DNA of 32,000 bases from contig NZ_VFPH01000001.1 in the NCBI RefSeq assembly GCF_006717045.1, positions 3,643,462 to 3,675,461 on the forward strand, written 5' to 3'. Position 1 is the stretch's first letter. The number at the start of each line of letters is the position of its first letter. Both the position numbers and the translations under genes were made by a program. This document shows, piece by piece, positions 7,814 to 25,003 of the stretch. This DNA comes from Pseudonocardia cypriaca (GTDB lineage Bacteria > Actinomycetota > Actinomycetes > Mycobacteriales > Pseudonocardiaceae). Below the pieces are notes generated by a model. The model worked only from the letters and a program-made list of their open reading frames with translations. It was not told the origin of the DNA and ran no database searches.

Positions 7814-8809
7814 GTGGAGCTCGCCACGATCATCGTGGTGATCGTGATGGCCGTCGCGTTCGACTACACCAACGGCTTCCACGACGCCGCCAACGCCATC
7901 GCGACCTCCGTCGCCACGCGGGCCCTCACCCCCCGCGCCGCGCTGATCATGGCCGCGCTGATGAACCTGGTCGGTGCGTTCCTCGGCACCGCGGTCGCCT
8001 CCACGGTCGGCAGCGGCATCATCGACCCACCGCAGGGGATCTCGGGCCTCGTCGTGGTGCTCGCGGCCCTCGTCGGTGCGATCGTGTGGAACCTCATCAC
8101 GTGGTGGTTCGGCATGCCGTCCTCGTCGTCGCACGCGCTGATCGGCGGGCTCGTGGGCGCCGCGCTCGCCGCGGCGGGCACGGTGCACTGGAGCGGCGTG
8201 CTGGACAAGGTCGTCATCCCGATGGTGCTGTCACCGATGGTGGGCTTCCTGCTCGCCGGGCTGCTGATGACCGCGTTGCTGTGGACCTTCCGGAGGGCCT
8301 ACCCGCAGCGGCTCAGCCGCGGCTTCCGCTACGCCCAAACCCTCTCGGCCGCCGCGATGGCCCTCGGACACGGCCTGCAGGACGCCCAGAAGACGATGGG
8401 CGTGATCGTGCTGGCGCTCGTCGTCGGCGGCTACCACCAGGGCTTCGAGGTGCCGTGGTGGGTGGTCCTGCTCGCGGCGGGTGCGCTGTCGGCCGGCACC
8501 TACGCCGGCGGCTGGCGGATCATGCGGACGCTCGGGCGGCGGATCATCGACCTCGACCCGCCTCGCGGGTTCGCCGCGGAGATGACGGCGTCGGCGGTGC
8601 TCTACACCACCGCCTTCGCGTTCGCCGCCCCGATCTCGACCACGCAGACCATCACCTCGTCGATCCTCGGCGTCGGCGCCACGAAGCGGCTCTCCGCGGT
8701 GCGGTGGGGTGTGGCGGGCAACATCGTCGTGGCGTGGGTGCTCACGATCCCGATGGCCGCCTTGGCCGCCGCACTCTCGTTCTGGGCGCTGCACCCCCTC
8801 CTGCAGTAG
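7814..8809 (+). CDS. PiT-family inorganic phosphate transporter
   Basis: GTG start. 331 aa polytopic membrane protein with FDYTNGFHDAANAIATSV, the PiT-family signature. Confidence 0.85.
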   Translation: MELATIIVVIVMAVAFDYTNGFHDAANAIATSVATRALTPRAALIMAALMNLVGAFLGTAVASTVGSGIIDPPQGISGLVVVLAALVGAIVWNLITWWFGMPSSSSHALIGGLVGAALAAAGTVHWSGVLDKVVIPMVLSPMVGFLLAGLLMTALLWTFRRAYPQRLSRGFRYAQTLSAAAMALGHGLQDAQKTMGVIVLALVVGGYHQGFEVPWWVVLLAAGALSAGTYAGGWRIMRTLGRRIIDLDPPRGFAAEMTASAVLYTTAFAFAAPISTTQTITSSILGVGATKRLSAVRWGVAGNIVVAWVLTIPMAALAAALSFWALHPLLQ

Positions 8810-8815
8810 CTCCCC

Positions 8816-10277
8816 TCACGCGCCGCGGACGGCCCGGCCCGGCAGCGCGCCGGTGTCGAGCACGCCGTCGCGCACCACGAACCGGCCCCCGACCAGGACG
8901 TGCCGGATGCCCTCCGACGGGCGGGTGGTGTCGGTGTAGGTCGACCGGTCGGACACGGTGTCCGGGTCGAAGATCGTGACGTCGGCGTCGCTCCCCGGCT
9001 GCAGCCGCCCCTTGCGGCGCATCGCGGGCGCCGCCGGCTGCACGATCCGCGCCGGCACGAGCGTGCAGCGGCGCACGGCCTCCGGCAGGCTCAGCGCCCC
9101 TTGCTCGCGCACGAGCAGCCGCAGGGTGCGGGCGAACGTTCCGGCTGTGCGCGGGTGGGTCGCGACCCGGGGCGGAAGCGGCCAGGCCAGCGGGTCGCGC
9201 GGGCCCGCCGTCCACTGGGGCGCGATCGCGTCGCTCGCCACCGCGGCGTCCGGGAAGGCGAGCGCCCGCTGCACGACGCCGAACGCGGCCGGGTCGGACT
9301 CGTCGACCTGGTGCACGAAGGCGAGCGCGCCCGGATCCTCCGCGCGCACCCGGCGCAGCTCGTCGGCGTCGGCGATGCGCCTGCCGAGGGCGAGGTGGCC
9401 GATGGAGCTCGGGGTGAGGCCGCGCCGGTGCAGCAGGCGCGAGGAACGCGGCCCCGATCCCGGTCATCCCGGCGCCGTACGGGTAGGCCTCCGTGGTGAC
9501 CGCCGAGCCCTCGCCGCGGACCCGCTCCACCAGGGCCAGCACGCGGTCCACGTGCCGGCCCGACGTGCTGTTGAGGTGGCAGTAGTGCATGTGCGCACCG
9601 GTCTCGCCCGCCGCGCGCACGATCTCCTCCGCCCCGTCGACCGCGACGTGCGGGTCGGCCTCCACCAGGTCCCGGGCGTGGGTGTAGGTCGGCACGCCGT
9701 GCCGCGCGGCCAGCGCCGCGACGGCGAGGTACTCGGCGGGATCGGTGCCCGGCGCGTACCCGACGAGCACACCGATCCCGAGCGCGCCCGCCGCCAGGTC
9801 GGCCTCGAGAAGCGCCAGGATGCGCTCGACGTCCGCGGGCGGGGCCGCGGCCTGCCAGCGCGGGTCGGCGACGTGGACGAGCAGCTGGTCGAGGTCACCG
9901 ACCGCGGGCGCGCCGGCTAGGACGTGCATGCGGGCGGCCGCCCACGACGTCGAGAAGCCGTAGTTGACCGGCCGCCCCTCGGCGGCGGCCCGGCGGTAGG
10001 CCTGGTCCACCGGCAGGGCGCCCGCCTCGAGCTCGAGCGCGGTGGTGACCCCGTCGAGCGCCTGCAGCCGCTGGCCCGGGATGTCCTGGCTGTGGCTGTG
10101 CAGGTCGACGAACCCCGGGCACACGACGAGCCCCGTGGCGTCGACGGTGGTGGCTCCGGGAAGGGGCTGCTCGCTGACCTCCCGGACGGCACCGCCGGAG
10201 ATCCCGACGTCGCGGACCGAATCGAGGCCGGACTCGGGGTCGATCACCCGGCCGCCGCTGAGGACGAGGTCGTACAC
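8816..10277 (-). pseudogene. D-aminoacylase / amidohydrolase-family gene with a frameshift near 9437-9466
   Basis: The N-terminal part (VYDLVLSGGRVIDP...GFVDLHSHSQ...TTEAYPYGAGMTGIGAAFLAP) lies in the frame of ORF 8742..10418. The C-terminal part (LLHRRGLTPSSIGHLALG...RVRAEDPGALAFVHQVDE...GRLQPGSDADVTIFDP) lies in the frame of ORF 8816..9349. After the shift the first frame reads Arg/Pro-rich nonsense. The GTG at 10277 is preferred as start because AGGGGG lies 8 nt upstream. Confidence 0.7.
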
Positions 10278-10279
10278 GG

Positions 10280-10302
10280 TCGACACCCCCTGACCGTAGA
10301 TC
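10280..10302. repeat. attL core (TCGACACCCCCTGACCGTAGATC)
   Basis: Identical 23-mer at 24981-25003. The bases on either side differ, so the repeat is exactly 23 bp. Confidence 0.85.
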
Positions 10303-10397
10303 TCCGCTGATCCGTCTGCAGCAGTCCGCCGAGGGCTCTGACGTCGCACTGCCCGACAGCCCACGCCCGTAGGAGTTTGCGCTGCCCAGGGACCGTT

Positions 10398-10416
10398 GCT
10401 GTCGCTGTCAGCTGTC
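10398..10416 (+). repeat. Three tandem GCTGTC(A/G) motifs, candidate integrase/Xis arm-type sites (P' arm)
   Basis: GCTGTC GCTGTCA GCTGTCA starts 96 nt inside attL. The same heptamer occurs twice, in the same orientation, between the int stop and attR (24903-24922). Confidence 0.45.
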
Positions 10417-10898
10417 AACCCCGACCTTCGGTGCTGCCTGTAAGCCGGACCATGGCTTGATCCTGGGCATTGGTCGCAGCACCGCCCTGACCAGCGACTA
10501 CGCCTTTCAGCAGTTGGCGGTGTTCACCAGCTTGTTGTGGGCTCCCGTGCCCCCCGTGTGCCCCGCGAGATGATCTATCTGGCGAAGCTGGCCTTGACTG
10601 CCAGGACGGCGAGCTAGGCGCAACTGCTGCTCTGCGGGCTGCGATGCCCGTTCGGACGGACGTGCGAGGTGGGCACTGTCTGCTCCCGTGCAGGACGTGT
10701 GGTCCCCGGCTCTGGTCCCCACCTTGTAAGGCCTCGACTGCGCGCCACACCCATGTCTAGCCGACGCGCCGACCGACTCCCCCTGCAGTTGGCTGTAGTA
10801 GTTGGTTGCAACGAACAGCATGCGGACCGCACGCGGTGTCTAGTGCTACTCCGGCATCGACGACGTAACGCTGGCGGCCGCACCGCGACGTCTTCACC

Positions 10899-12290
10899 GT
10901 GAACGAGTCTCGGCCGGAGAATGACACCTCAGTAGAGGATGGGTGCCCAACACCGACTGCACACAAGCGGCTACATGAAGGCCATCGCTGGTGGCACGGA
11001 TGTCTTTCCTCTTACGACAACCCGCAAGAGTTTCAAGTCAATTTGAATGCATGTTTGCAGGCTTTGCGCAATGTAACCTGGGTCCTACAGAAGGAACACG
11101 ACCTAGTTCCCGACTTTGTCACGTGGTACCCCGCGTGGCAGCAACAGATGAAGGACGATCCATTGATGAGGTGGCTCGTCAAATCTCGCAATCGTGTTGT
11201 CAAGTCTGGAGATCTAGACCTCCATTCGACTGCCCGTCTCCGCTTAGTGGAGAGCTATTACCACATGGCCGACGCGTTCGACGAGAGCATGCTGAGTCGG
11301 GATACCGAAGCTGAAACCGTTAAGATTGTTCCGCCAAGAACGATGCCGAGTGAGTATGCAACGTATCTATCAGGGCTTCCTGAAAGGGCACTCGCCAGCA
11401 AGCTCATACTTGCTGAACGGCGCTGGGTCGATAAGGCACTGTCGAATTATGAACTACTGGACGCGCTAGCGCATTGCTATGGCGTTCTAGCCAATCTTCT
11501 GGCCGATGCACATCAGCGAAAAGGGGGTGCAAGCGCAGGCACTGCACGCCTTCTGCACGAGGGTCGATTGCCTTGCATGGTTACAACGCTTGACGTTCGT
11601 ACGGCACATTACCGCGTCACTGATGGCTCTCTAGTTACTGTAATGGGCCGAGGAATTGCCGAGATAGGCAACTTTCGAAGCACGGCAGTCCGCCGATACA
11701 AGACTCAGCTACCGGAACTTATTGATGCGGCGCAGCCGCAGTCTGTAATCGATCTAGTCGACCCGATCTTTACGCAAGCGAAGAATGTCCTATCGAAAGA
11801 CAAGACCCACAGCCACATAACAATGCTCTACCGCGGCACAGAGCTCATCGATGTCAGGCAAACTCTATTTTCGGACCGGGCGGATAAATATGTATACGCC
11901 AGAGATCTCGCGAAGGCCGTACTGATGACCGGAGCAGACGGAGTCATTACGATCGGCGAGATCTGGCAATCAAAGGTCACTCTTGATGATCAAGGCGTCG
12001 TACTTCCACCGGCCGAGGTGCCCGACCGATTGGAAGCTCTTGAGGTTTATGCAGAAACCTCAGATGGATCTATCCGAGCTAAGTATGCATACTTCCGAAA
12101 GCGCTTCGGAAGGATTTCGTATTATGGAGAACAAGAGATAACTGAGTCGCTTGAGAACAATATGTACGCTCCAACTCGCGCTGTCTGGGGAAGCAGATCC
12201 AAGGAGCGCGAACAGGATGCAGCAGAGAAGTTCGTCGAGAATGTGCGAGAGGCAGCGGATTCCGACAATCTAACTGATCCAACGAATTAG
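10899..12290 (+). CDS. Hypothetical protein, 463 aa, AICE cargo, no recognisable family
   Basis: Long ORF in visibly A+T-richer DNA, where stop codons are frequent by chance, using A/T-ending codons. GTG is the only start codon before residue ~85 and no clear Shine-Dalgarno precedes it. No Walker, HTH or TM motif seen. Confidence 0.75.
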   Translation: MNESRPENDTSVEDGCPTPTAHKRLHEGHRWWHGCLSSYDNPQEFQVNLNACLQALRNVTWVLQKEHDLVPDFVTWYPAWQQQMKDDPLMRWLVKSRNRVVKSGDLDLHSTARLRLVESYYHMADAFDESMLSRDTEAETVKIVPPRTMPSEYATYLSGLPERALASKLILAERRWVDKALSNYELLDALAHCYGVLANLLADAHQRKGGASAGTARLLHEGRLPCMVTTLDVRTAHYRVTDGSLVTVMGRGIAEIGNFRSTAVRRYKTQLPELIDAAQPQSVIDLVDPIFTQAKNVLSKDKTHSHITMLYRGTELIDVRQTLFSDRADKYVYARDLAKAVLMTGADGVITIGEIWQSKVTLDDQGVVLPPAEVPDRLEALEVYAETSDGSIRAKYAYFRKRFGRISYYGEQEITESLENNMYAPTRAVWGSRSKEREQDAAEKFVENVREAADSDNLTDPTN

Positions 12291-12344
12291 TTCCAATGTG
12301 ACAGAGGTACCTATCATGCGTCGGCAAGGCAGTCCGCTCGGCTC

Positions 12345-12424
12345 ATCACCGCGATCCTGGCCGGGTCCTTTAGATGATCACGAACTGTCTGCCCAGGTAG
12401 GGGGGCTGACCAGGCATGATCGCT
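12345..12424. repeat. G+C-rich palindromic element, short copy
   Basis: 12345-12397 aligns with 13557-13608 at about 39 of 53 positions. The arm 12373-12394 pairs imperfectly (14 Watson-Crick plus 2 G-T pairs of 22 positions) with 12403-12424 across an 8-nt loop. Confidence 0.5.
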
Positions 12425-12616
12425 GCGTGTGATCCGCTGACCTGCGTGCGTATACGTTAGCGCTGGCTGTCGGCGTTGATCGGTCCGTGGGCGTCCCACG
12501 GGCCTGAGGACGGCTTGATCTTGGGCGCACCGGCGCCCCCAGCCCGAACTTGTGGCGATGCAGCTTCGCATAGACTCTCTCTACCTTTCGGGAAGCGATG
12601 GAGGCGGATTCCGGGC

Positions 12617-13522
12617 GTGACCCTCAATATTACAGTCGTGTCATCGTGGCTGATTGGGCAGACCTCTGATTTCAAGCTATTTCGGTCAAACGGCAACCGA
12701 AGAGATTATGACGATTCCAGCCAGAAGCAGGTTGTCATAAAGTATCCCTCTTGGGCCGGACTCCTTTGCTACACTGGAGTAGCGGAGCACGACAGTCATA
12801 AGACTGCGGAGTGGCTCATCGAGATGCTGACTCATGATGATGGTAGACATAGGACACCAAACGGTATTACGAAGATCCTCGCAAAAGAAGGTAGTAGTTG
12901 GCTTCGTTCAGTGCCTCGCAAGTATCGGTATCACACATTTACATTGACCTACTTCCAGAAGGGTGTACCGCATCTGCAGGTCATTTCCAACTTTCAGCGG
13001 GCAGCTGGACGAAACATCGACGAACCGCTAGATAGATTTATTGTTTCGCATTTTCGTCCCCGCGAGCCTAGGTGTATCGTTACCGGGACGGAAGTGTACC
13101 GCGTTAGCCCCTCCGTCACTAAACCGATAATGACAGCCGAGGAGCGAGCGCAACTCGAGAGGGCGATTACAGATACTTCGGATTTGCAGCGCTTCCGCAG
13201 AAGAATGGCCGAGGCGAGCAGGGGATGCGCTTCGCGCGCCCCACGGTATATTAGCCAGAACTGCGTATCATCCCACCTATTGCCGGACGGCTCTGGCGAA
13301 ATGCAGTTATTTGGAAATATGAATGAAAAGTACCTCCCTTCGCTTATAGTTGCCGGGCATGATCTGTCACCTTCTGTTCCTCTAGCGCTTGAGCAGTCGG
13401 GGTCTCAAGACCTCCCGCACCGACTAGTTGGCGCGACATGGACTGCTGACCGGACTGGAATGGCGGCAATGGTGTACGCCGTGCGGGAGCTGCGACGGCA
13501 GACGGGTACTGGGTGGGAGTAG
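12617..13522 (+). CDS. Hypothetical protein, ~301 aa, AICE cargo, no recognisable family
   Basis: The A+T-richer part of ORF 12476..13522. The upstream 47 codons lie in the G+C-rich intergenic island. GTG at 12617 (VTLNITVVSSW...) is the first plausible start; GTG at 12638 is an alternative. Confidence 0.7.
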   Translation: MTLNITVVSSWLIGQTSDFKLFRSNGNRRDYDDSSQKQVVIKYPSWAGLLCYTGVAEHDSHKTAEWLIEMLTHDDGRHRTPNGITKILAKEGSSWLRSVPRKYRYHTFTLTYFQKGVPHLQVISNFQRAAGRNIDEPLDRFIVSHFRPREPRCIVTGTEVYRVSPSVTKPIMTAEERAQLERAITDTSDLQRFRRRMAEASRGCASRAPRYISQNCVSSHLLPDGSGEMQLFGNMNEKYLPSLIVAGHDLSPSVPLALEQSGSQDLPHRLVGATWTADRTGMAAMVYAVRELRRQTGTGWE

Positions 13523-13556
13523 GGGCTCCCCCGGGTCTCATTCCAGTCTTCGCCCG

Positions 13557-13715
13557 ATCCCCGCGATCGTGGCCCGCTCTTCACATGATCACGAGGTGTC
13601 AACCCGGAACCCCCGATCCCGCGACCCGACCACGGACCGAACCGGCCTATGTCTTGCCAGCGCGGCCCACCGGCGGGATCGGGGCGCGCAGCGGGGTTGA
13701 CTCCTCGCGATCATG
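13557..13715. repeat. G+C-rich palindromic element, long copy (~130-nt extended hairpin)
   Basis: Outer arms 13584-13605 / 13694-13715 pair at 20 of 22 positions. Inner arms 13611-13622 (CCCCGATCCCGC) / 13673-13684 (GCGGGATCGGGG) are 12 bp perfect. The 5' part is homologous to 12345-12397. Confidence 0.6.
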
Positions 13716-13868
13716 GAAGACGATGTGCGGCCAGCGGGGATGGCCACTACTCGCCGTAGTCCAGCTTTCCCCCATCGCCGGCGCATGGCCGGCGGCCCAT
13801 AGGCGCACGGCCGCCCGTGAGCGGAGCGGCAAGGTAGCGGCCGCGCATGCCGTCCGGCGCAGTCCGGC

Positions 13869-13888
13869 CCGTCCCCGGCAGGGGACGG
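13869..13888. terminator. Short GC hairpin between convergent cargo genes
   Basis: CCGTCCCC-GGCA-GGGGACGG, an 8-bp stem with a 4-nt loop. No U/T tract on either strand, so terminator function is uncertain. Confidence 0.3.
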
Positions 13889-13930
13889 CTTGAAGACGTA
13901 TAGAAAGTTCTCACCACGCAACCGCAGTGA

Positions 13931-14464
13931 CTACGAGGCCCTCCCTGCTGCGCGCTTGTTGACGCGGACGAGGATGGACCGGGTTGGCTGCGAAGGCGTG
14001 AAGTCGTCGCCCTCCGTCGACGTCAGCAGGGAGTATTCGAGTTCGCCCGCTAGCGCGTCCAGTGGTTCAGTTGAGCTCATCGATATCACCGCAGTGCGGA
14101 ATTCGATGTGCGGAAGCAGGGCGATCAATGACGGGGTTATCCCGTGGGGAAGATTGCTGAGCATCACATCGCAGGTTAATGCCCCGTCCCGCAGTAGTGT
14201 CACACCGTCCGCGTTGAGCACGACCGCGTGAGGGACATTCTGCTTTAATGAATCGATTAGGCGTCCGTCGAACTCGACTAGCGTCAAGCTCGCCGAGCGT
14301 GGTAGTGCTTGGGCAATCGTACCGACTCCGGCACCAATTTCAACGACCTTGTCGCCGGGTCGAATGTCGGCTGCATCAATAATAAGCGCAAGCTTGTCGG
14401 GCGCAGTGAGAAAGTACTGACCCTTTGATGGATCAGCGAGTGCCATCAGGGCCTCTTGGTTCAT
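13931..14464 (-). CDS. Minimal Erm/KsgA-family (rRNA adenine dimethylase-like) SAM-dependent methyltransferase, 177 aa
   Basis: Contains GQYFL (family GQNFL), VVEIGAGVGTIAQAL (SAM motif I), LVEFD, SNLPHGITPSLI (family NLPYNIS) and a terminal DDFTPSQPTRSILVRV. These are collinear with the KsgA catalytic domain; no C-terminal domain is present. Confidence 0.75.
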   Translation of the reverse strand: MNQEALMALADPSKGQYFLTAPDKLALIIDAADIRPGDKVVEIGAGVGTIAQALPRSASLTLVEFDGRLIDSLKQNVPHAVVLNADGVTLLRDGALTCDVMLSNLPHGITPSLIALLPHIEFRTAVISMSSTEPLDALAGELEYSLLTSTEGDDFTPSQPTRSILVRVNKRAAGRAS

Positions 14465-14472
14465 GAGTGGAA

Positions 14473-15696
14473 TTATAGCGCGCTGTCGTCAAGTACGCGA
14501 CGTAGATGCTCGCCTTCATCGTGGATGATCCCGGGGATTCGATTTCCGTCTACTTCGGAGGCCGTGGACAATGCGTCGCGAATTATGCGCATTGAGCGGT
14601 TAGATGCGACCTGCAGAGTGAGTGGCCGAAGCTGTTTAATTGTTTCCGCAGCAGCATCCCATGATCGCGACAGCGTCTGAGCTTTGAGCAGATAGGCTCG
14701 ATGCAGATATTGGCTTCGCGTCTCGTGTGGAGGCGTCGCCTCTACGGAGAGTTCAAAGTGATCCAAGGCCTGACCGGTATCCCCGAGTGCTTGCCGGCAC
14801 ATTGCCTCGTGCCACTGAAGCTCGCGCTCGTCGATCCACCATGCCCAAGCGGGATCTGTGGCGCTGGTTCCGTCTTCGTACAGGGAACGAGCCTCTTTGA
14901 TGAGCTGCAGGGCCGATGCGTCGCCGCCCTGCGCCAGGGCACGCGCCTTGCGGATCAAGAAGAGCGCCCGCACGCGTGGAGTCAGATGATATGAACCGTC
15001 AAGAACCGAGTTCGCGATATCAAGAGCTTCGTGGGGGCGATTGAGGAACCCAGCATGCATGCTTGCATTCTGCAGAGTAAGAAGCTCGATGCTCGTATCG
15101 CCAGCCAGACGCGTAAAATATAGCGCTTCCTGATTCATGCGGCGAACAAGATCATGCTCGTCCGCATCATAAGCAAGCCATCCAGTGATCTCGGCGAGTT
15201 CACCGGCCGTGGCGATGAGGTCTTTGCGAATGCTGGGCTGATGCGCACCCGTGCCGATGCTTTCATGGAGAGAGCGAAAGAGGCGCCCGCCAAGACGTGT
15301 GAGTTCGGCGCCCCCGTGGCGGTTATCCAGAGACACCATTGCCTGCATTGAACTCTTGATGTCGGCCAGGTCATCATTGCCCAAGAACGTGGCCATTCGC
15401 AGTTCAAGTGGGCCGGAGCGGAGCGTGGCCGGGTCGCGATTTGGTGCAGTGCCGGCTGTCCTGTCCGGCTCGTTACGGTGCGGATCAGGACGTAGACCGA
15501 GTTCTACCTCGGAAGCAAGGTAGAGCTCCTTGTACGCGCGTTGGTAGACAGGGCTCGGGCGGGAGATGCCACGTTCGTGTCGACGGACCATCTCAGCTGT
15601 GATGCCGATCCGTTCGGCAACCTCCTCCTGGGTGCCATGCTGAAGCCGGTATTCACGCAGGTGGGGACTGAAGGGAACACGCTTCGGGCGGGCCAT
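14473..15696 (-). CDS. XRE-family HTH transcriptional regulator with a ~300-aa helical (TPR-like) C-terminal domain
   Basis: N-terminal LREYRLQHGTQEEVAERIGITAEMVRRHERG is a classic XRE HTH. The rest is repetitive and helix-prone. The gene is divergent from the Pra-like gene, and its stop lies 8 nt before the methyltransferase start. Confidence 0.8.
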   Translation of the reverse strand: MARPKRVPFSPHLREYRLQHGTQEEVAERIGITAEMVRRHERGISRPSPVYQRAYKELYLASEVELGLRPDPHRNEPDRTAGTAPNRDPATLRSGPLELRMATFLGNDDLADIKSSMQAMVSLDNRHGGAELTRLGGRLFRSLHESIGTGAHQPSIRKDLIATAGELAEITGWLAYDADEHDLVRRMNQEALYFTRLAGDTSIELLTLQNASMHAGFLNRPHEALDIANSVLDGSYHLTPRVRALFLIRKARALAQGGDASALQLIKEARSLYEDGTSATDPAWAWWIDERELQWHEAMCRQALGDTGQALDHFELSVEATPPHETRSQYLHRAYLLKAQTLSRSWDAAAETIKQLRPLTLQVASNRSMRIIRDALSTASEVDGNRIPGIIHDEGEHLRRVLDDSAL

Positions 15697-15698
15697 GT

Positions 15699-15812
15699 GG
15701 TCGCTCTCCGGTCGCTCCTGGGCGGGTGATCTGAGTGTAGCGGGGACAGTGGTTGCTGCGGGGGGTTTTGGTTGAGGTCGCGCGAGGGGTAACTATTGGG
15801 GTTTCGCGACCT
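15699..15812. promoter_or_regulatory. Candidate operator cluster in the divergent regulator/pra-like intergenic region
   Basis: GGTCGCTC at 15699-15706 and 15710-15717, and GGTCGCGC at 15776-15783. An inverted partner CGCGACCT at 15805-15812 forms an 8-bp inverted repeat (AGGTCGCG/CGCGACCT) with a 22-nt spacer. Confidence 0.35.
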
Positions 15813-15903
15813 GGGGCACGTGGTCCTCCGATGGTCTCCTTGTAGTGCGTCCCCGACCGGAGGCGCACAACCTGCAAGTTGATCCAAAGGGAGCACAGCA
15901 GTC

Positions 15904-16245
15904 ATGAAGCTCATCCTCGACACGTCCAACACGAAGTTCCAGCTCGGTGGCGAGTTCACGCCGCGTCTGGACAAGGACGGTAACCAGCGTCGGGACAAGA
16001 GTGGTGGTACGAACCTGCCCCTGTGGGCCGCGAACCTTGTGGCCTGGTCAGACGGGACTGTTGAGACGATTCTGGTGACCGTCGCCCTCGCTGAGGCTCC
16101 GAAGGTTTCCCAGGGTCAGTACGTGTCCGTTCAGGGTCTGCAGGCGATGCCGTGGGTGCAGAACGGAAACTCTCGGGTGGCGTTTCGTGCCGATTCCATC
16201 GTTCCGACCAGCAACGGGGCCGCTCCGGCTCCGAAGGCCAGCTGA
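15904..16245 (+). CDS. Pra-like protein (plasmid replication/integration/excision activator family)
   Basis: 113 aa with AAGGGAG as Shine-Dalgarno. The pattern RRDKSGG..LPLW..NLV....ILVTVA..AP......YVSVQGLQAMPWV..N.SRVAFRADSI resembles, from memory, the conserved small AICE activator family. Position upstream of the transfer genes fits. Confidence 0.45.
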   Translation: MKLILDTSNTKFQLGGEFTPRLDKDGNQRRDKSGGTNLPLWAANLVAWSDGTVETILVTVALAEAPKVSQGQYVSVQGLQAMPWVQNGNSRVAFRADSIVPTSNGAAPAPKAS

Positions 16246-17302: not shown

Positions 17303-18780
17303 GGGCCTGTCAAGAAGTCTGTGTAAGTCGATCTAGGAATCGGTCAGGTCAGGTAGGGGTTGATGCGCTCGGGGTAGGCCAGGGCGAGCGAGCCGAGGGC
17401 CTGTTTCCAGCCCTGGACGACGGCGCCTTCGACCAGCCGGCCCGGGGCCTTGCGTTCGTTGGCTGGTAGGCCCTTCTCCTTCGCCCGGGCGCGGGCGCGT
17501 TTGTCCTCAATGTCGCGGATCGCCAGCCACAGCAACTTGATCGCGGCGTCGTCGTTCGGGAAGTGCCCCCGGTTCTTGATGATCTTCCGAAGTTGGTAGT
17601 TCAGCGACTCGATCGCGTTCGTCGTGTAGATGATCTTCCGGAGCTCGGGTGGGAACGCCAGGAACGGGATGAACCGCTCCCAGGCGTTCACCCAGGTCGC
17701 CACGGCGGCCGGGTACTTCTTGCCGAGGCTGGAGCTGGCGAAGCTGTCCAACTCGGTGCGGGCGATCTCGTCGGTGGGGGCGGTGTAGATCGGCCGCAGC
17801 GCCGCGGCGACCTTCTTGCGGTCGGCGTAGGAGACGAACCGCATCGCCGCGCGCAGCAGGTGCACCGTGCAGGTCTGCACGATGCTCTGCGGCCAGGTCG
17901 CTTCGATGGCCTCGGGGAATCCGCTCAGCCCGTCGCAACACACGATCAGCACGTCCCGCACGCCGCGGTTGCGCAGCTCGGCGCACACCCCGGCCCAGAA
18001 CTTCGCCCCCTCGGCTGCCTGCACCCAGATCCCGAGCACGTGCTTGACGCCGTCGAGGTCGACCCCGACGGCCAGGTGCGCGGACCGGTTGCGGACCTGG
18101 TGCCCGTCCCGCACTTTGATCACCAGCGCGTCCAGGTAGACGATCGGGTAGATCTCCTCCAGCGGGCGGGACTGCCAGGCCTTCACCTCCTCCAACACCG
18201 AGTCGGTGATCTTGGAGATGGTGTCGTGGGACAGCTCGGTGCCGATCGTGCGCTGCAGGTGGTGGGCGATGTCGCGCACGGTCATCCCACCCGCATACAG
18301 CGAGATGATCATCTCATCCAGGCCGCCGGTGCGCCGCGAACCCTTCGGCACCAGGCGCGGTTCGAACGTGCCAGACCGGTCCCGCGGAACGTCCAGGGCC
18401 ACGTCGCCGACCTCGGTGGCCACCGTCTTCGGGCTGGTGCCGTTGCGCGAGTTCGGCGTCCCACGCCCGGCCGGGTCGCCTTTCTCGTAGCCCAGGTGCG
18501 CGGTCTGCTCGACCGCCAAGCCGCGTTCGAGCACCGCTTTGATCATCTCCGGGAGGAAACCACCATCGCCGGTCAAGGCGAGCTCGCCCGCATCGACCTG
18601 GGACATGAGCTGATCCAGCAGGCCGGCCTCGATCATGCTGTTCACCGCGTCCCGCGCGGTCACCGGCCCGGCATCATCGTCGGCGCCGAGAGGATGGCCA
18701 GCCCGTGGCTCACCGGTCATGGTCATCTGTGTACTCCTCAACTCAAGAGGATCTTGTTACACAGACCATCTGACACGCTC
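17303..18780 (-). mobile_element. IS256-family insertion sequence, 1478 bp
   Basis: 8-bp target duplication CGCCTCGC at 17295-17302 and 18781-18788. Imperfect terminal inverted repeats GGGCCTGTCAAGAAGTCTGTGTAAGTCGATC / GAGCGTGTCAGATGGTCTGTGTAACAAGATC match at 20 of 31 positions and share a GTCTGTGTAA core. Single Mutator/IS256-type transposase gene. Confidence 0.85.
17344..18726 (-). CDS. IS256-family (Mutator-type) transposase
   Basis: 460 aa from the ATG at 18726, with GAGGAG 7 nt upstream; the ORF track starts at a TTG at 18741. Family-typical stretches: NSRNGTSPKTV, FEPRLVPKGSRR, MIISLYAGGMTVRDI, IVYLDALVIKVR, TTNAIESLN. Confidence 0.9.
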   Translation of the reverse strand: MTMTGEPRAGHPLGADDDAGPVTARDAVNSMIEAGLLDQLMSQVDAGELALTGDGGFLPEMIKAVLERGLAVEQTAHLGYEKGDPAGRGTPNSRNGTSPKTVATEVGDVALDVPRDRSGTFEPRLVPKGSRRTGGLDEMIISLYAGGMTVRDIAHHLQRTIGTELSHDTISKITDSVLEEVKAWQSRPLEEIYPIVYLDALVIKVRDGHQVRNRSAHLAVGVDLDGVKHVLGIWVQAAEGAKFWAGVCAELRNRGVRDVLIVCCDGLSGFPEAIEATWPQSIVQTCTVHLLRAAMRFVSYADRKKVAAALRPIYTAPTDEIARTELDSFASSSLGKKYPAAVATWVNAWERFIPFLAFPPELRKIIYTTNAIESLNYQLRKIIKNRGHFPNDDAAIKLLWLAIRDIEDKRARARAKEKGLPANERKAPGRLVEGAVVQGWKQALGSLALAYPERINPYLT

Positions 18781-19320: not shown

Positions 19321-20166
19321 ATGAAGGACACGATCACGATGACCCGCCCACACCGCCGCCGGCGCACCCGCCGCACCTGCCAACCGCTGTCGATCTACAG
19401 CCCGATCCACTTCGGGATTGACGAGAACGGCCTCCCCGTGGAGGTCACCCTGATGTACCGCAACCTGCTCATCGGAGGCGAACCCGGCTCCGGCAAGTCC
19501 AGCCTGCTCAACACCATCATCGCCCACGCCGCCCTAGCTTCGGACGTGAAGCTGTGGCTGTTCGACGGCAAGATCGTCGAACTCGGCTTGTGGCGTTCGG
19601 TGGCCGACGTGTTCGTCGGCAACAACATCCGCCACGCCCTGGACAAGCTCCGCGAGCTCCAGGCCGAGATGGACCTGCGCTACCGGCAGCTCGACGCCGT
19701 CAAGCGCCGCAAGATCGTCGACACCGATGGTCTGGACACGATCCTGTGCGTGATCGACGAGATCGCCTACTTCACCGCCACGATCGGCACCAAGGAAGAA
19801 CAGGACGAGTTCCGCAACCTGGTCCGTGACCTCGTCGCCCGGGGTCGGGCCGCCGGAATCATCGTCGTCGGTGCCACCCAGCGGCCGTCGGCCGACATCA
19901 TCCCGACCTCGCTGCGGGACCTGTTCGGGTTTCGGGTCGCCTTCCGCTGTACCACCGACTCCAGCTCGGACATCATCTTGTCCCAGGGTTGGGCCAAGGA
20001 AGGCTATTCCGCTAAGAACATCCGCCCGGAAGACATCGGGGTCGGATGGATCCTCGCCGAAGGCGGCCTCCCACGCCGATTCAAGGCCGCCTACCTGACC
20101 GACGCACAGATCGAAGCGGTCATCACCACCGCACTGCGTATTCGCGGCATCGACCCCGCCGCATAA
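19321..20166 (+). CDS. FtsK/SpoIIIE-family DNA-translocase ATPase (TraSA/TraB-like conjugal transfer protein)
   Basis: 281 aa with Walker A GGEPGSGKSS, Walker B LCVIDEIAYF and the family-typical IIVVGATQRPS. Confidence 0.85.
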   Translation: MKDTITMTRPHRRRRTRRTCQPLSIYSPIHFGIDENGLPVEVTLMYRNLLIGGEPGSGKSSLLNTIIAHAALASDVKLWLFDGKIVELGLWRSVADVFVGNNIRHALDKLRELQAEMDLRYRQLDAVKRRKIVDTDGLDTILCVIDEIAYFTATIGTKEEQDEFRNLVRDLVARGRAAGIIVVGATQRPSADIIPTSLRDLFGFRVAFRCTTDSSSDIILSQGWAKEGYSAKNIRPEDIGVGWILAEGGLPRRFKAAYLTDAQIEAVITTALRIRGIDPAA

Positions 20167-22041: not shown

Positions 22042-23556
22042 ATGCCCACCACTCAAGCTCTGTCCCTGCATGAGCGGAAACTGCTACGCCGCGCGAGCTC
22101 TGACCACCTCAACCGCTGGCTCGCCCACACCGCCAGCACCCGGGGCTGCCGCCGACCCGTCCGCCTCACCGGCTCCATCGACACCGTCGAACGCGCCACC
22201 GGCCGCATCCTCGACACCCGCCACACCGCCTCGGACATGCCCGATGGGGTGCTCTATGTGCCCTGCGGGGACCGCCGCGCCTCGGTCTGCCCACCCTGCG
22301 CCGAGACCTACCGCGCCGACACCTACCAACTCATCAAAGCCGGCCTCACCGGAGGCAAGGGCGTCCCGTCATCTGTGGCCGGGCATCCGGCCGTGTTCGC
22401 CACCCTCACTGCGCCCTCGTTCGGGCCGGTCCACTCCCGCCGGGTCAATCCCAAGACGGGCAAGGTCGCCCCCTGCCACATGCGCCGCTCCGCCACCCGC
22501 TGCCCGCACGGGAGGCTCCTGGTCTGCACCGCCCGCCACACCGACAACCACCCCTCGTTGGGCCGGCCGTTGTGCCTGGACTGCTACGACCACGCTCACC
22601 ACGTTGTCTGGAACGCCTGGGCCGGCGAACTCTGGCGCCGCACCATGATCCGACTCGGTCGCAACCTCCGGCCGTACGAGCATGCCTACGGGATCCGGCT
22701 ACGGGTCTCCTACGGCAAGGTCGCCGAATACCAACGCCGCGGAGTCGTTCACTTCCACGCCCTCATCCGGCTCGACGTCCGCCCGAACACCGACCCGAAG
22801 CGCGGCCCGGTCGGGGACCCGGATGCCATACTCGCCCCGCCAGCGGACATCACCGCACAGGACCTCGCCGAGCTCGTCGCCGCCGCCGCACAGTCCACCG
22901 GGTTCGACACCATCCCGTATGCGGACACCGGCCACACCTGGCCCATGCACTGGGGATCCCAACTCGACGTCCGCCCCGTCGGGAACCTCGGCACCGGACA
23001 GATCACCTCAGAGGCCGTCGCCGCCTATCTTGCGAAGTACGCGACCAAGGCCACCGAAACCACCGGCCTCCCGCCCACCGGCCGCATGACGGCTGAGGCT
23101 GCCGAGCACTACAGCGACGCCCACACCCACCTCGGACGTCTCGTCGCCTACGCCTTCCAGCTCGGCACCCTGCCCCAGGACTGGACCACCGACGAACAAC
23201 AAGCGGAATGGCACGCCACCTGGGGCCGGCTCCGCCGCTGGACCCACATGCTCGGCTTCGGCGGCCACTTCGCCACCAAATCCCGCCGCTACTCCACCAC
23301 CCACAAAGCCCTCCGCGCGCAGCGCCGGGCCTGGCACCGCCACCAGCACACCGACTGGCGCCGCCGCCACACCGACCGCCTCGAGCACCAACACGAACAC
23401 GACGATGACACCACGTTGATCGTCTGCCAGCTCACCCTGGCCGGGATCGGCTGGAACACCACCGGCGACGCCCAACTCGCCGCCGACGCGGCAGACCGCG
23501 CCCGTGCGCACCGGCAGCTGGTGAAGCAGGAACGCACCACCGCACGACCCGCGTGA
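22042..23556 (+). CDS. repSA: RepSA-type replication initiator protein
   Basis: 504 aa with family-typical segments VPCGDRRASVCPPCAETYRADTY, FATLTAPSFGPVH, LCLDCYD and YQRRGVVHFHALIRLD. Located immediately upstream of xis-int, as in pSAM2. Confidence 0.9.
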   Translation: MPTTQALSLHERKLLRRASSDHLNRWLAHTASTRGCRRPVRLTGSIDTVERATGRILDTRHTASDMPDGVLYVPCGDRRASVCPPCAETYRADTYQLIKAGLTGGKGVPSSVAGHPAVFATLTAPSFGPVHSRRVNPKTGKVAPCHMRRSATRCPHGRLLVCTARHTDNHPSLGRPLCLDCYDHAHHVVWNAWAGELWRRTMIRLGRNLRPYEHAYGIRLRVSYGKVAEYQRRGVVHFHALIRLDVRPNTDPKRGPVGDPDAILAPPADITAQDLAELVAAAAQSTGFDTIPYADTGHTWPMHWGSQLDVRPVGNLGTGQITSEAVAAYLAKYATKATETTGLPPTGRMTAEAAEHYSDAHTHLGRLVAYAFQLGTLPQDWTTDEQQAEWHATWGRLRRWTHMLGFGGHFATKSRRYSTTHKALRAQRRAWHRHQHTDWRRRHTDRLEHQHEHDDDTTLIVCQLTLAGIGWNTTGDAQLAADAADRARAHRQLVKQERTTARPA

Positions 23557-23593
23557 CCCTCACCCACCCCCATGAATCAGGAGCTAGGAAGCC

Positions 23594-23782
23594 ATGGAAC
23601 GCGTACTACTGACCGCCGAGGAGGTCGCCGAAGCCCTCCACATCGGCCGCTGCACCGTCTACGACCTGATCCGCACCGGACAACTCCGATCCTTCAAGAT
23701 CGGCAAGCTCCGCCGCATCCCCGTCGACGCCCTCCACGAGTACGCCCGCCGCATGCTCGACGAGGAAGGCGACGTGGCATGA
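23594..23782 (+). CDS. xis: Excisionase (MerR-like HTH_17 family)
   Basis: 62 aa with LLTAEEVAEALHIGRCTVYDLIRTGQLRSFKIGKLRRIP. Its stop overlaps the int start (ATGA at 23779-23782). Confidence 0.85.
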   Translation: MERVLLTAEEVAEALHIGRCTVYDLIRTGQLRSFKIGKLRRIPVDALHEYARRMLDEEGDVA

Positions 23783-24893
23783 GCGGCCGCAACATCAACG
23801 GCGAGGGCAGCGTCTACCAACGCAAGGATGGACGGTGGGTCGCCGCCGCCTACGTGCCCGTTGTCGGTGGGAGCGTCCGCCGGCAAGCCCTCTACGCCAA
23901 GACCCGCGCGGAGGCGAGCGAGCTGCTGGACCGAGCCGAGAAGCACATCCCGGTGGCTCCCACGAGCCTGACTGTGGCGGGCTACCTCGACGAGTGGTTG
24001 ATCCACGTCAGGCAGCACGTGCGGGCGACGACCTGGGAGGCGTACGAGCGCAATGTTCGGCTCTACCTCATACCTCGCATCGGCAGGAAGAAGCTCACCC
24101 GGCTCACTGTGCGTGATGTGCGGCTGATGATCGACGCTCTACGGGCAGAGGGCATTGGGGCCCGCACGATCCAGTATGTGCACGCCACCTTGCGGGCTGC
24201 TCTCGAACACGCCTATCGGGAGGAGTTGGTCAGTCGCAACTAGCCAAGCTCGTCCGGGTCGAGCGACCGAAGCCGGCGCCCAAGAAGCCGCTCACCATCG
24301 AAGAGGCACGCAAGCTCCTCGACGGCACGACTGATGATCGGTTGCACGCGCTGTGGGTACTGCTGCTCATGCTCGGTCTGCGTCGTAGTGAGGCGTGCGG
24401 GTTGCGCTGGGAGCACATCGACTTCGTCGCCCGCACGCTGCAGATCGTCCAGACCGTTCAGCGGGTGGACGGAAAGCTCCGGGAGTTGCCCACAAAGCCT
24501 CGACGCTCGAACCGTACGGTGCCCCTGCCACCGCGAGTGCTCTTCGCCCTTGCCCGGCACCATCGCCACTTGCAGGAGCACTACGGGGCTCCGGGTCAAC
24601 CTTGGCCACCAGAGGGGTACGTCTTCGGTACACGCCATGGGACTCCGCTGGATCCTCGGAACCTGACCCGCATGTGGAGCGAACTGTGCGCCGACCACGG
24701 CATCCGCGTTGTGCCCCTGCACGGCCTCCGCCACACCTGCGTGAGCTTGTTGCTCGCGCTCGGCGTACACCCGCGGATCGTGATGGAGATCGTCGGTCAC
24801 AGCGCCATGGAGATGACCATGAACGTCTACGGCCACGTGAACCTGGAGGCTCAGCGCAGCGCGCTCGACCACCTCGACGAGCAGCTCTCATGA
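23779..24893 (+). pseudogene. int: Tyrosine integrase interrupted by a 1-nt frameshift at ~24240
   Basis: The N-terminal SAM-like domain ends ...YREELVSRN-TAG at 24241-24243. The catalytic domain continues in another frame from 24240 as LAKLVRVERPKPAPKKPLTIEEARKLLDG...LRRSEACGLRW...HGLRHTCVSLLL...MNVYGHV, which contains the R, HxxR and Y catalytic residues. No stop occurs in the second frame near the junction. Confidence 0.8.
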
Positions 24894-24980: not shown

Positions 24981-25003
24981 TCGACACCCCCTGACCGTAG
25001 ATC
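24981..25003. repeat. attR core (TCGACACCCCCTGACCGTAGATC)
   Basis: Identical to 10280-10302 and lies 88 nt after the int stop. Confidence 0.85.

Follow-up and report, generated by a model that had tools for sequence, protein, structure and literature searches.

A probable mosaic of three accessory units in a pSAM2-type element of Pseudonocardia cypriaca, at the end away from the integrase gene

Four genes in an A+T-richer stretch and their linkage

The window analyzed here is a stretch of 32,000 nucleotides from Pseudonocardia cypriaca, and it holds a pSAM2-type actinomycete integrative and conjugative element (AICE) of 14.7 kb that is delimited by 23-bp direct repeats (TCGACACCCCCTGACCGTAGATC). 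Four genes, which we call g1 to g4, occupy 4.8 kb at the integrase-distal end of this element (Table 1), and the g1 and g2 products have 100% identity with P. cypriaca proteins. An earlier interpretation of the same DNA, made from the letters without database searches (the sequence-only reading), had called four open reading frames (ORFs) here, with coordinates and strands that held, and had proposed that they form one regulator-controlled module. In our analysis, g4 and g3 belong together, and the stretch as a whole is probably a mosaic of three independently inherited units (g1, g2, and the g4-g3 pair) in an apparently decaying AICE.

Table 1. Features of the element, in window coordinates
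Feature	Coordinates	Strand	Remarks
Left 23-bp direct repeat (att core)	10280-10302		Overlaps the 5' end of the minus-strand amidohydrolase gene
g1	10899-12290	+	463 aa; lambda Ea47 family, PF26900
g1-g2 spacer	12291-12616		G+C 0.61-0.69; folding versus shuffles z = +0.78, not above chance
g2	12617-13522	+	301 aa; predicted stand-alone proteasome-beta/Anbu-like N-terminal nucleophile (Ntn)-hydrolase homologue without propeptide
Nested imperfect palindrome	13584-13715		Arms 13584-13605/13694-13715, 91% (22 nt); 13611-13622/13673-13684, 100% (12 nt)
G+C-rich hairpin	13869-13888		~45 nt downstream of the g3 stop; conserved in L012/L013
g3	13931-14464	-	177 aa; KsgA/Erm-superfamily S-adenosylmethionine (SAM) methyltransferase, catalytic Rossmann domain only
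g4	14473-15696	-	407 aa; NsdA-family regulator; N-terminal XRE helix-turn-helix (HTH), tetratricopeptide repeat (TPR)-like C-terminal domain
Divergent g4/pra-like intergenic region	15697-15903		207 bp; contains AGGTCGCG-N22-CGCGACCT
g5	15904-16245	+	SCO3933/Pra-like small protein; element backbone, not part of the cargo
IS256/Mutator-family transposase	17344-18741		E = 8e-119; inside the element, ~0.6 kb upstream of the FtsK/SpoIIIE gene
FtsK/SpoIIIE gene (Tra)	19321-20166		281 aa only; FtsK_SpoIIIE, E = 2e-17
RepSA gene	22042-23556		E = 9e-150
Tyrosine integrase, N-terminal ORF	23572-24243		Integrase domain matched
Tyrosine integrase, C-terminal ORF	24342-24893		Integrase domain matched
Right 23-bp direct repeat	24981-25003		Partner of the copy at 10280-10302

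The cargo differs from its surroundings in composition. G+C content is 0.49 to 0.60 over 10900-15400, against 0.69 to 0.78 in the flanking chromosome and 0.62 to 0.71 in the remaining element, and G+C content at third codon positions (GC3) is 0.54 in g1, 0.56 in g2, 0.66 in g3, and 0.61 in g4, compared with 0.87 to 0.91 in repSA, ftsK, and the insertion sequence (IS) transposase gene and 0.85 to 0.97 in chromosomal genes. The codons AAT, TTT, ATA, and AAA total 25 in g1, 14 in g2, 5 in g3, and 14 in g4 and were not found in the four chromosomal genes tested. These values bear out the lower G+C content and foreign codon use seen in the sequence-only reading, and the direct repeats, with the RepSA, integrase, and FtsK/SpoIIIE genes between the two copies, likewise agree with its view that the accessory DNA occupies one end of an AICE. 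The layout it had described as two convergent pairs is instead a single convergent junction, with g1 and g2 transcribed rightward and g3 and g4 leftward. G+C-richer spacers (12300-12650 and 13400-13950) lie between the A+T-rich genes.

We determined co-occurrence by tblastn over 41 related loci, including 11 for g1, 21 for g2, and 9 for g3. Neither g2 nor g3 was found in any of the 11 g1 loci, and g1, g3, and g4 were all absent from the 21 g2 loci. A g4 homologue (49 to 89% identity) lies directly upstream of the g3 homologue, abutting or overlapping it, in seven of the nine g3 loci; the two loci without it hold the most distant g3 relatives. A related element (loci L012 and L013) matches 13777-16060 at 87 to 88% nucleotide identity, a block that contains only the pra-like gene g5, g4, and g3, and the similarity stops abruptly ~160 bp beyond the g3 stop codon. 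Because g1 and g2 do not co-occur, because L012/L013 shares only the pra-like gene, g4, and g3, and because G+C-richer spacers separate the genes, we interpret the stretch as three units. Scattered homologues had been named beforehand as evidence against a single module; this is what we observed for g1 and g2, whereas the link between g4 and g3 stood.

These data bear directly on the proposal that all four genes make up one regulator-controlled defense or addiction system, in which g3 would provide modification or immunity and the two large proteins would be effector and sensor. In its favor, the genes are adjacent, are all low in G+C, and occupy the variable part of a mobile element; moreover, g3 has a partial match to the PADLOC mad2 profile (E = 1e-15), and a distant TPR relative of g4 lies beside a g1 homologue in the AICE L018. 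However, g1 and g2 never accompany the others in the 41 loci, and the close relative L012/L013 carries g4-g3 without them. Searches of Pfam, NCBIfam, and predicted folds gave no nuclease, ATPase, or toxin domain, and PADLOC gave nothing usable for the two large proteins (no match for g1 and, for g2, only Cas7fv at E = 0.033, which is chance level). The mad2 match is no stronger than the generic KsgA match (55 versus 59 bits), and the other mad genes are missing. Linkage analysis thus largely refutes a four-gene system, which we consider extremely unlikely, and the roles of modifier, effector, and sensor are not supported, given that there is no linkage, no nuclease partner, and no usable PADLOC match. 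Genes that lie side by side in the variable part of an integrative element and share a low G+C content do not, for that reason alone, form a system.

Some considerations also weigh against the mosaic. The absence of conserved linkage does not disprove a functional interaction in this P. cypriaca strain, g4 could regulate g1 or g2 in trans, and the sample of g3 contexts is small (nine loci) and mainly from metagenomes.

The g4-g3 operon and its divergent neighbor

The g4 product matched the NsdA-family NCBIfam model NF053720 over residues 20 to 382 (186.8 bits; cutoff, 75) and HTH_3 (27.4 bits; cutoff, 23), which confirms the XRE-TPR-like regulator of the sequence-only reading. It also matched phrog_10886 (E = 1e-36). 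Despite the family match, similarity to NsdA and NsdB proper was weak (48 and 41 bits versus cutoffs of 830 and 700). Vondra gp24 and SV1 gp24, from temperate Streptomyces phages, likewise combine an HTH with a TPR-like domain, and phage homologues of g4 lie beside the integrase gene in the lysogeny modules of such phages. Unlike NsdA, NsdB, and the phage HTH-TPR regulators, g4 is in an operon with a methyltransferase gene and is divergent from a pra-like gene. No sequence relatives of g4 were found in the PDB, including PlcR, PrgX, and AimR. Quorum sensing of the RRNPP type was rejected for g4 in that the downstream gene, here and at seven related loci, encodes a 177-aa methyltransferase and not a small secreted peptide; this comparison looked at the adjacent gene, and small peptide ORFs elsewhere were not searched.

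The minimal Erm/KsgA-like methyltransferase that had been recognized in g3 was likewise confirmed. The g3 product matched Pfam PF00398 (RrnaAD) at 42.2 bits (cutoff, 24), and its family profile matched KsgA/Dim1 (E = 5e-16) and ErmC' (E = 4e-10) in the PDB, with matches confined to the catalytic domain, residues ~7 to 190 of the KsgA and Erm chains. Like KsgA/RsmA/Dim1 and Erm, g3 has the GQxFL motif, SAM-binding motifs I to III, the N-L-P of motif IV, and the F-x-P of motif VIII (in g3, GQxFL, ExGxGxG, ExD, NLP-x, and DDFxPxQ), and Q16, F18, L19, E42, G44, G46, E64, and D66 are invariant in its family. Unlike these enzymes, it stops after motif VIII and lacks the C-terminal helical RNA-binding domain, and it is paired with an HTH-TPR gene, mostly on AICE-like elements. 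All equivalog scores fell below their cutoffs: 59.3 of 171 bits for KsgA TIGR00755, 50.1 of 212 for Erm NF000499, and 30.7 of 350 for Erm(37) NF000468. We envisage that g3 would methylate adenine N6 in RNA or DNA, with targeting supplied by a partner, most plausibly g4. Counting against this chemistry, the fourth residue of motif IV in g3 is H and not aromatic, and across the family it is H, N, T, A, S, W, or C; because the motif-IV aromatic residue is missing, canonical adenine-N6 chemistry is not assured.

Two further assignments were rejected for g3. Only positions 260 to 382 of the 492-position PADLOC mad2 profile match it, and none of the four proteins has another PADLOC mad match that would indicate a MADS system. 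A restriction-modification system with a controller was set aside in that g1 and g2 show no nuclease domain or fold (Pfam, PADLOC, NCBIfam, and fold search) and are unlinked to g3 elsewhere. A scan of IMG/VR returned no relatives of g3. In the protein-collection search no protein was identical to g3, and the best match had only 94% identity; g3 may therefore be unannotated or differently started in the source genome.

g4 is the first gene of the operon, and g3, which starts 8 nt after the end of g4, is probably translationally coupled to it. Relative to L012, the ratio of nonsynonymous to synonymous substitution rates (dN/dS) is 0.11 for g4 and 0.21 for g3, values that indicate purifying selection on the pair, and the comparisons of related loci support a functional link between the two genes. 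The G+C-rich hairpin downstream of g3 is likely to be the terminator of the operon. Among the g4-g3 loci, FtsK/SpoIIIE occurs together with an integrase or serine recombinase in L014, L015, and L042, the first two of which have a GntR gene just upstream as well, and L043 has an integrase gene and a weak FtsK-like tblastn match. Most g4-g3 loci are AICE-like.

The divergent neighbor g5 ties g4-g3 to the regulatory end of the element. Its product matches NF051478 over the full length (E = 2.5e-11), although at 43.7 bits it is under the cutoff of 80. In an AICE remnant of S. coelicolor, SCO3933 is the homologue of pSAM2 Pra and is divergent from SCO3932, the KorSA homologue (PMC8584621). As in the pSAM2 KorSA-Pra switch, g4 is divergent from a Pra/SCO3933-like gene and takes the position of SCO3932; g4 is an XRE-TPR protein, whereas KorSA belongs to GntR/HutC. 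The region between g4 and g5 is 94% identical to that of L012/L013 (over 15660-15930) despite a synonymous divergence (dS) of ~0.5 in g4, which argues for a constrained control region, and the 207 bp between the two genes are probably a promoter-operator region. Scans for promoters and terminators gave counts no higher than the shuffle expectation.

Given the pra-like neighbor, the conserved intergenic region, and the phage lysogeny-module homologues, we read g4 as a regulator of the element switch and g3 as its co-expressed enzymatic partner. In this mechanism g4, transcribed divergently from the pra-like activator gene and located in the kor repressor position, would bind the conserved 207-bp region, regulate its own expression, and gate activation of the element. 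Two observations speak against a simple form of this mechanism: a GntR KorSA-like gene was not found among the element ORFs scanned, and L014 and L015 each hold a g4 homologue in addition to a GntR gene, so that a simple replacement of KorSA by g4 does not fit. The presence of g4-g3 beside the kor/pra region may point to an unrecognized layer of AICE regulation or to a new KsgA/Erm-like arrangement.

The same pair could instead be an inducible antibiotic-resistance cassette, in which g3 is a truncated Erm/KsgA-type rRNA adenine methyltransferase and g4 a drug-responsive regulator, and this would be compatible with the mosaic. Among the sequence matches of g3, rRNA adenine dimethylases rank first (KsgA TIGR00755, E = 3.6e-16; Erm NF000499, E = 2.3e-13; KsgA and ErmC' in the PDB), the family-specific GQxFL motif is kept, and the length of g3 is near that of the 179-aa Erm(37) model of M. 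tuberculosis. Erm(37) works without a C-terminal domain. Additionally, the hosts are actinomycetes, which live among antibiotic producers. However, the scores of g3 are far under every equivalog cutoff, the g3 family does not keep the conserved motif-IV aromatic residue of KsgA and Erm, the pair is located at the regulatory end of AICE-like elements and not in resistance islands, and g3 was found in none of 72,556 plasmids. We regard a resistance cassette as unlikely and prefer g4-g3 as a part of the element switch.

The g1 and g2 families

The two large proteins had been described as orphans, and this does not hold for either of them. PF26900 (Phage_lambda_Ea47) is carried by all 79 g1 homologues, including the 100%-identical P0001, and tblastn of g1 against lambda ea47 gave 27% identity with 81% of g1 covered (E = 6e-28). 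g1 also matches phrog_19262 (E = 1.2e-32). The two proteins agree in the conserved blocks NLN..R.VT..LQK, WY, SRN...K.GDLE, ERRW, and GE.W, and both genes are accessory, non-backbone genes of an integrating element, which is an AICE for g1 and a phage for Ea47. g1 differs by an added Cys/His-rich N-terminal segment (CPTPTAHKRLHEGHRWWHGC) and by an invariant Cys226-Met227, both of which are absent in lambda. The public annotation of g1 is a 374-aa protein from Met90, which removes a conserved N-terminal region; the homologues favor the 463-aa form. Lambda ea47, an early-left gene of the b region, is non-essential and of unknown function, and because the function of Ea47 is itself unknown, the match gives a family name and no mechanism.

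The AlphaFold model of g1 (predicted local distance difference test [pLDDT] score, 83.5) had no match in a PDB fold search (best E = 0.1), and a BFVD fold search returned only uncharacterized phage proteins with ~150 to 220 residues covered. The IMG/VR scan gave no relatives of g1. A HEPN assignment was tried on R97-x4-[K/H]102 in the N-terminal helical bundle and rejected: most members, lambda among them, have Lys in place of the His, one has Ala, and 23 members had no HEPN Pfam match even at E <= 10. By inspection, the 'DGVITIGEIW' block has no ExK, and a PD-(D/E)xK reading of it was also rejected.

Homologues of the Ea47 family span Actinobacteria, Chloroflexi, Nitrospirales, Bacteroidota, and others, and they occur on large Streptomyces and Nocardia plasmids as well. 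Their contexts include the distal cargo of a Nocardia AICE, a position beside an integrase fragment, and one beside an nSTAND3 NTPase. Because g1 is unlinked to g2 and g3 and its homologues have such varied mobile contexts, we conclude that it behaves as a single-gene mobile unit. We picture g1 as a single-gene cassette of the Ea47 family that would serve as a non-essential "moron"-type gene of prophages, plasmids, and AICEs. The extension of the family to actinomycete AICEs and plasmids gives the unexplained lambda gene a second genetic context.

Three of the Ea47 loci have further features. In a deltaproteobacterial metagenome-assembled genome (L004, 9935-11695), an Ea47-like gene with a GC3 of 0.28 lies between two genes for pyruvate:ferredoxin oxidoreductase subunits (GC3 of 0.80 to 0.87), an arrangement that suggests the selfish insertion of one gene into a housekeeping operon. 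In phage lambda (L023, 22686-26973), ea47 adjoins ea31, annotated as an HNH endonuclease, and ea59, annotated as an AAA ATPase; this pair resembles a defense system, and therefore the lambda b region may be a small accessory or defense island. In the AICE of Nocardia tengchongensis (L018, 5922-9392), a gene for a 451-aa PF27520 SP15_N protein that shares 29% identity with the TPR portion of g4 lies between a GntR gene and the Ea47-like gene, and TPR-type regulators may be recurrent at this end of AICEs.

For g2, the AlphaFold model was of high confidence (pLDDT, 90.5; predicted TM-score, 0.90), and its Foldseek matches in the PDB were Anbu, taspase, and 20S beta subunits that represent all domains of life. 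Most of these matches had a probability of 1.00, the best E value was 1.8e-5, and target-normalized TM-scores for the Anbu and 20S subunit matches were 0.52 to 0.67. The structure search that had been suggested for the two orphans thus found a proteasome-like Ntn fold for g2 and no PDB match for g1. Proteasome-like proteins have a beta-sheet core, two helix pairs, Thr1/Ser1-Asp17-Lys33, and Gly47, and they comprise 22 families, including DAH, the "Distant Actinobacterial proteasome Homolog" (Fuchs, Alva, Lupas 2021; PMC8665760). The predicted strand and helix order of g2 agrees with the alpha-beta-beta-alpha criterion for the proteasome fold (PMC8665760).

The residue pattern of the g2 family is consistent with this fold. 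Like Anbu, g2 has no propeptide and has Thr (rarely Ser in the family) straight after the initiator Met, and like proteasome-like Ntn hydrolases it has Asp and Lys at catalytic-triad spacing. The alignment of 66 full-length homologues from actinomycetes starts MTLNITVA..SSDFRLT..QKQVV. Residue 2 is Thr in 136 and Ser in 5 of 141 diverse members, a set chosen on that feature; in an unselected list, 99 of 142 representatives start M/V-T/S-L, and the others are fragments or have seemingly over-extended starts. Among the 141 members, D18 and K37 are each conserved in 140 and S124 and G157 in all; G54 is invariant, and the position of G48 is Gly in 105 and Ala in 34; either of these may correspond to Gly47 of the oxyanion hole. 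D18 and K37 are mature positions 17 and 36, and their catalytic equivalence is proposed from spacing and strand position, not from residue-level superposition. Differences from the proteasome-like Ntn hydrolases, such as Anbu, HslV, BPH, and 20S beta, are a Lys at mature position 36 where those families have Lys33, ~70 additional C-terminal residues, and an existence as a stand-alone, mobile-element gene that lacks an ATPase partner. The nucleophile of g2 is predicted to be Thr2, and the enzyme would use Thr1, Asp17, and Lys36 (mature numbering) as an Ntn peptidase or transpeptidase.

The assignment of g2 rests on the predicted fold and the active-site pattern, because profile comparisons with HslV and 20S beta were empty. 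Weighing against it, no sequence-profile method (Pfam, NCBIfam, PDB-sequence profile search, or hhalign) ties g2 to proteasome families. Pfam and NCBIfam had no match for g2 and no model of its family in the copies searched, and at the profile level g2 resembles neither Pfam Proteasome nor HslV nor T. acidophilum beta; the hhalign comparison with the last two, one run of which was in an ill-suited global mode, found nothing. The DAH representative WP_085249540.1 is not among the g2 cluster accessions.

A profile search of 1.84 billion representatives, clustered at 50% identity, found at least 1,320 cluster representatives related to g2 at E <= 1e-3 and 686 at E <= 1e-10. Many relatives are ~600 aa long, with the g2-like domain from residue 1 and C-terminal extensions of ~300 aa, and C-terminal TPR repeats were present in 4 of the 10 longer relatives scanned. 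The phage, plasmid, and IMG/VR collections contain no member of the g2 family, and clustering of neighbors over the 21 g2 loci gave no conserved partner. Its homologues lie at an AICE edge beside an integrase, between IS elements in an island with NACHT, Bub, and GmrSD, and beside an integrase and a HEPN_Swt1/DUF5343 pair. We see g2 as a putative single-gene cassette for a propeptide-less proteasome-like hydrolase. It is an entry to a large uncharacterized protein family. Should this family prove active, the proteasome-like enzymes, which have already been the source of a useful ligase, connectase, would gain a member that stands alone and is associated with mobile elements. The main interest of the locus lies in this unannotated family and in the recurrent pair of HTH-TPR protein and minimal KsgA-like methyltransferase on AICE-like elements.

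The contexts of both families raise the possibility that g1, g2, or both are single-gene anti-phage or anti-plasmid defense (or counter-defense) genes carried as morons, which would also be compatible with the mosaic. Both families are consistently A+T-richer than their hosts (the Ea47-like gene of L004 has a GC3 of 0.28 among neighbors of 0.54 to 0.87), and they adjoin integrases, IS elements, NACHT, Bub, GmrSD, HEPN_Swt1/DUF5343, and nSTAND3. Lambda ea47 adjoins the ea31 (HNH) and ea59 (AAA ATPase) pair, and the C-terminal TPR arrays of some g2 relatives are as in many immune sensors. However, PADLOC gave nothing for g1 and only a chance-level match for g2, Ea47 has no known experimental phenotype, the guilt by association comes from a handful of loci, and g2 is absent from phage and plasmid collections. 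A defense role of either gene singly is plausible from context, and we rate it as possible but doubtful.

Two broader readings, to which we give a low probability, concern g2 and the g4-g3 pair. In the first, the g2 family would be unfoldase-free Thr1 enzymes that act alone as conflict effectors of mobile elements or as specific protein processors or ligases, and g2 may represent a large, unannotated, propeptide-less family of at least 1,320 clusters with some TPR-fused members. In the second, g4-g3 would be an undescribed AICE control module in which the HTH-TPR protein may bring a KsgA-like methyltransferase, stripped of its other domain, to a target in nucleic acid and thereby set the activation state of the element.

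State of the host element and its spacers

The element has RepSA, a tyrosine integrase, an FtsK/SpoIIIE Tra protein, and flanking direct repeats, as expected of a pSAM2-type AICE. Its insertion site is the 5' end of a protein-coding gene for an amidohydrolase and not a tRNA gene, none of which occurs in the window. No Rfam family was found in the window either. The integrase reading frame shifts near 24235, and the split gene is a pseudogene or else reflects an error of assembly. The IS insertion beside the short FtsK/SpoIIIE gene, for which no IS ends were identified, may disrupt transfer, and the element is apparently in decay.

This state could mean that the element is dying and that its cargo genes are inert leftovers, a view to which the IS256/Mutator transposase, the FtsK/SpoIIIE protein of only 281 aa, and the frameshifted integrase lend themselves. 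However, the four ORFs are intact with all family-invariant residues kept, the dN/dS values of g4 and g3 are low, and both frameshifts in the window could be assembly errors. We judge inert cargo to be very unlikely and retain the mosaic of three units.

The second frameshift is in the amidohydrolase gene (8742-10418), the att target. The frame switches within this gene, around 9400-9460: residues 91 to 320 match Amidohydro_3 and are followed by an Arg/Pro/Ala-rich translation, and the C-terminal part of the amidohydrolase domain is encoded at 8816-9463 in a different frame. Frameshifts in both integrase and amidohydrolase within one window may be sequencing errors. Between the left repeat and g1, ~600 bp (10303-10898) contain no recognizable gene.

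The spacers had been described as structured G+C-rich islands, which proved correct for one of the two. The g2-g3 spacer (13523-13930, 408 nt) outfolds 100 of 100 shuffles (z = -3.79), owing to the nested palindrome (Table 1), whereas the g1-g2 spacer folds no better than chance and has no Pfam match for the ORF within it. The palindrome falls just beyond the block that is common to the related elements (block end, ~13770), and a recombination scar or a miniature inverted-repeat transposable element (MITE)-like element are possible explanations of it. Two repeats were judged to be chance occurrences: one is a 10-nt direct repeat on either side of g2, and the other is a 23-nt inverted repeat (78% complementarity). 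A 22-nt inverted repeat with 95% complementarity connects the coding sequences of g1 (11450-11471) and g3 (14048-14069); both copies encode LDALA with identical codons, and the rough chance expectation is ~0.01.

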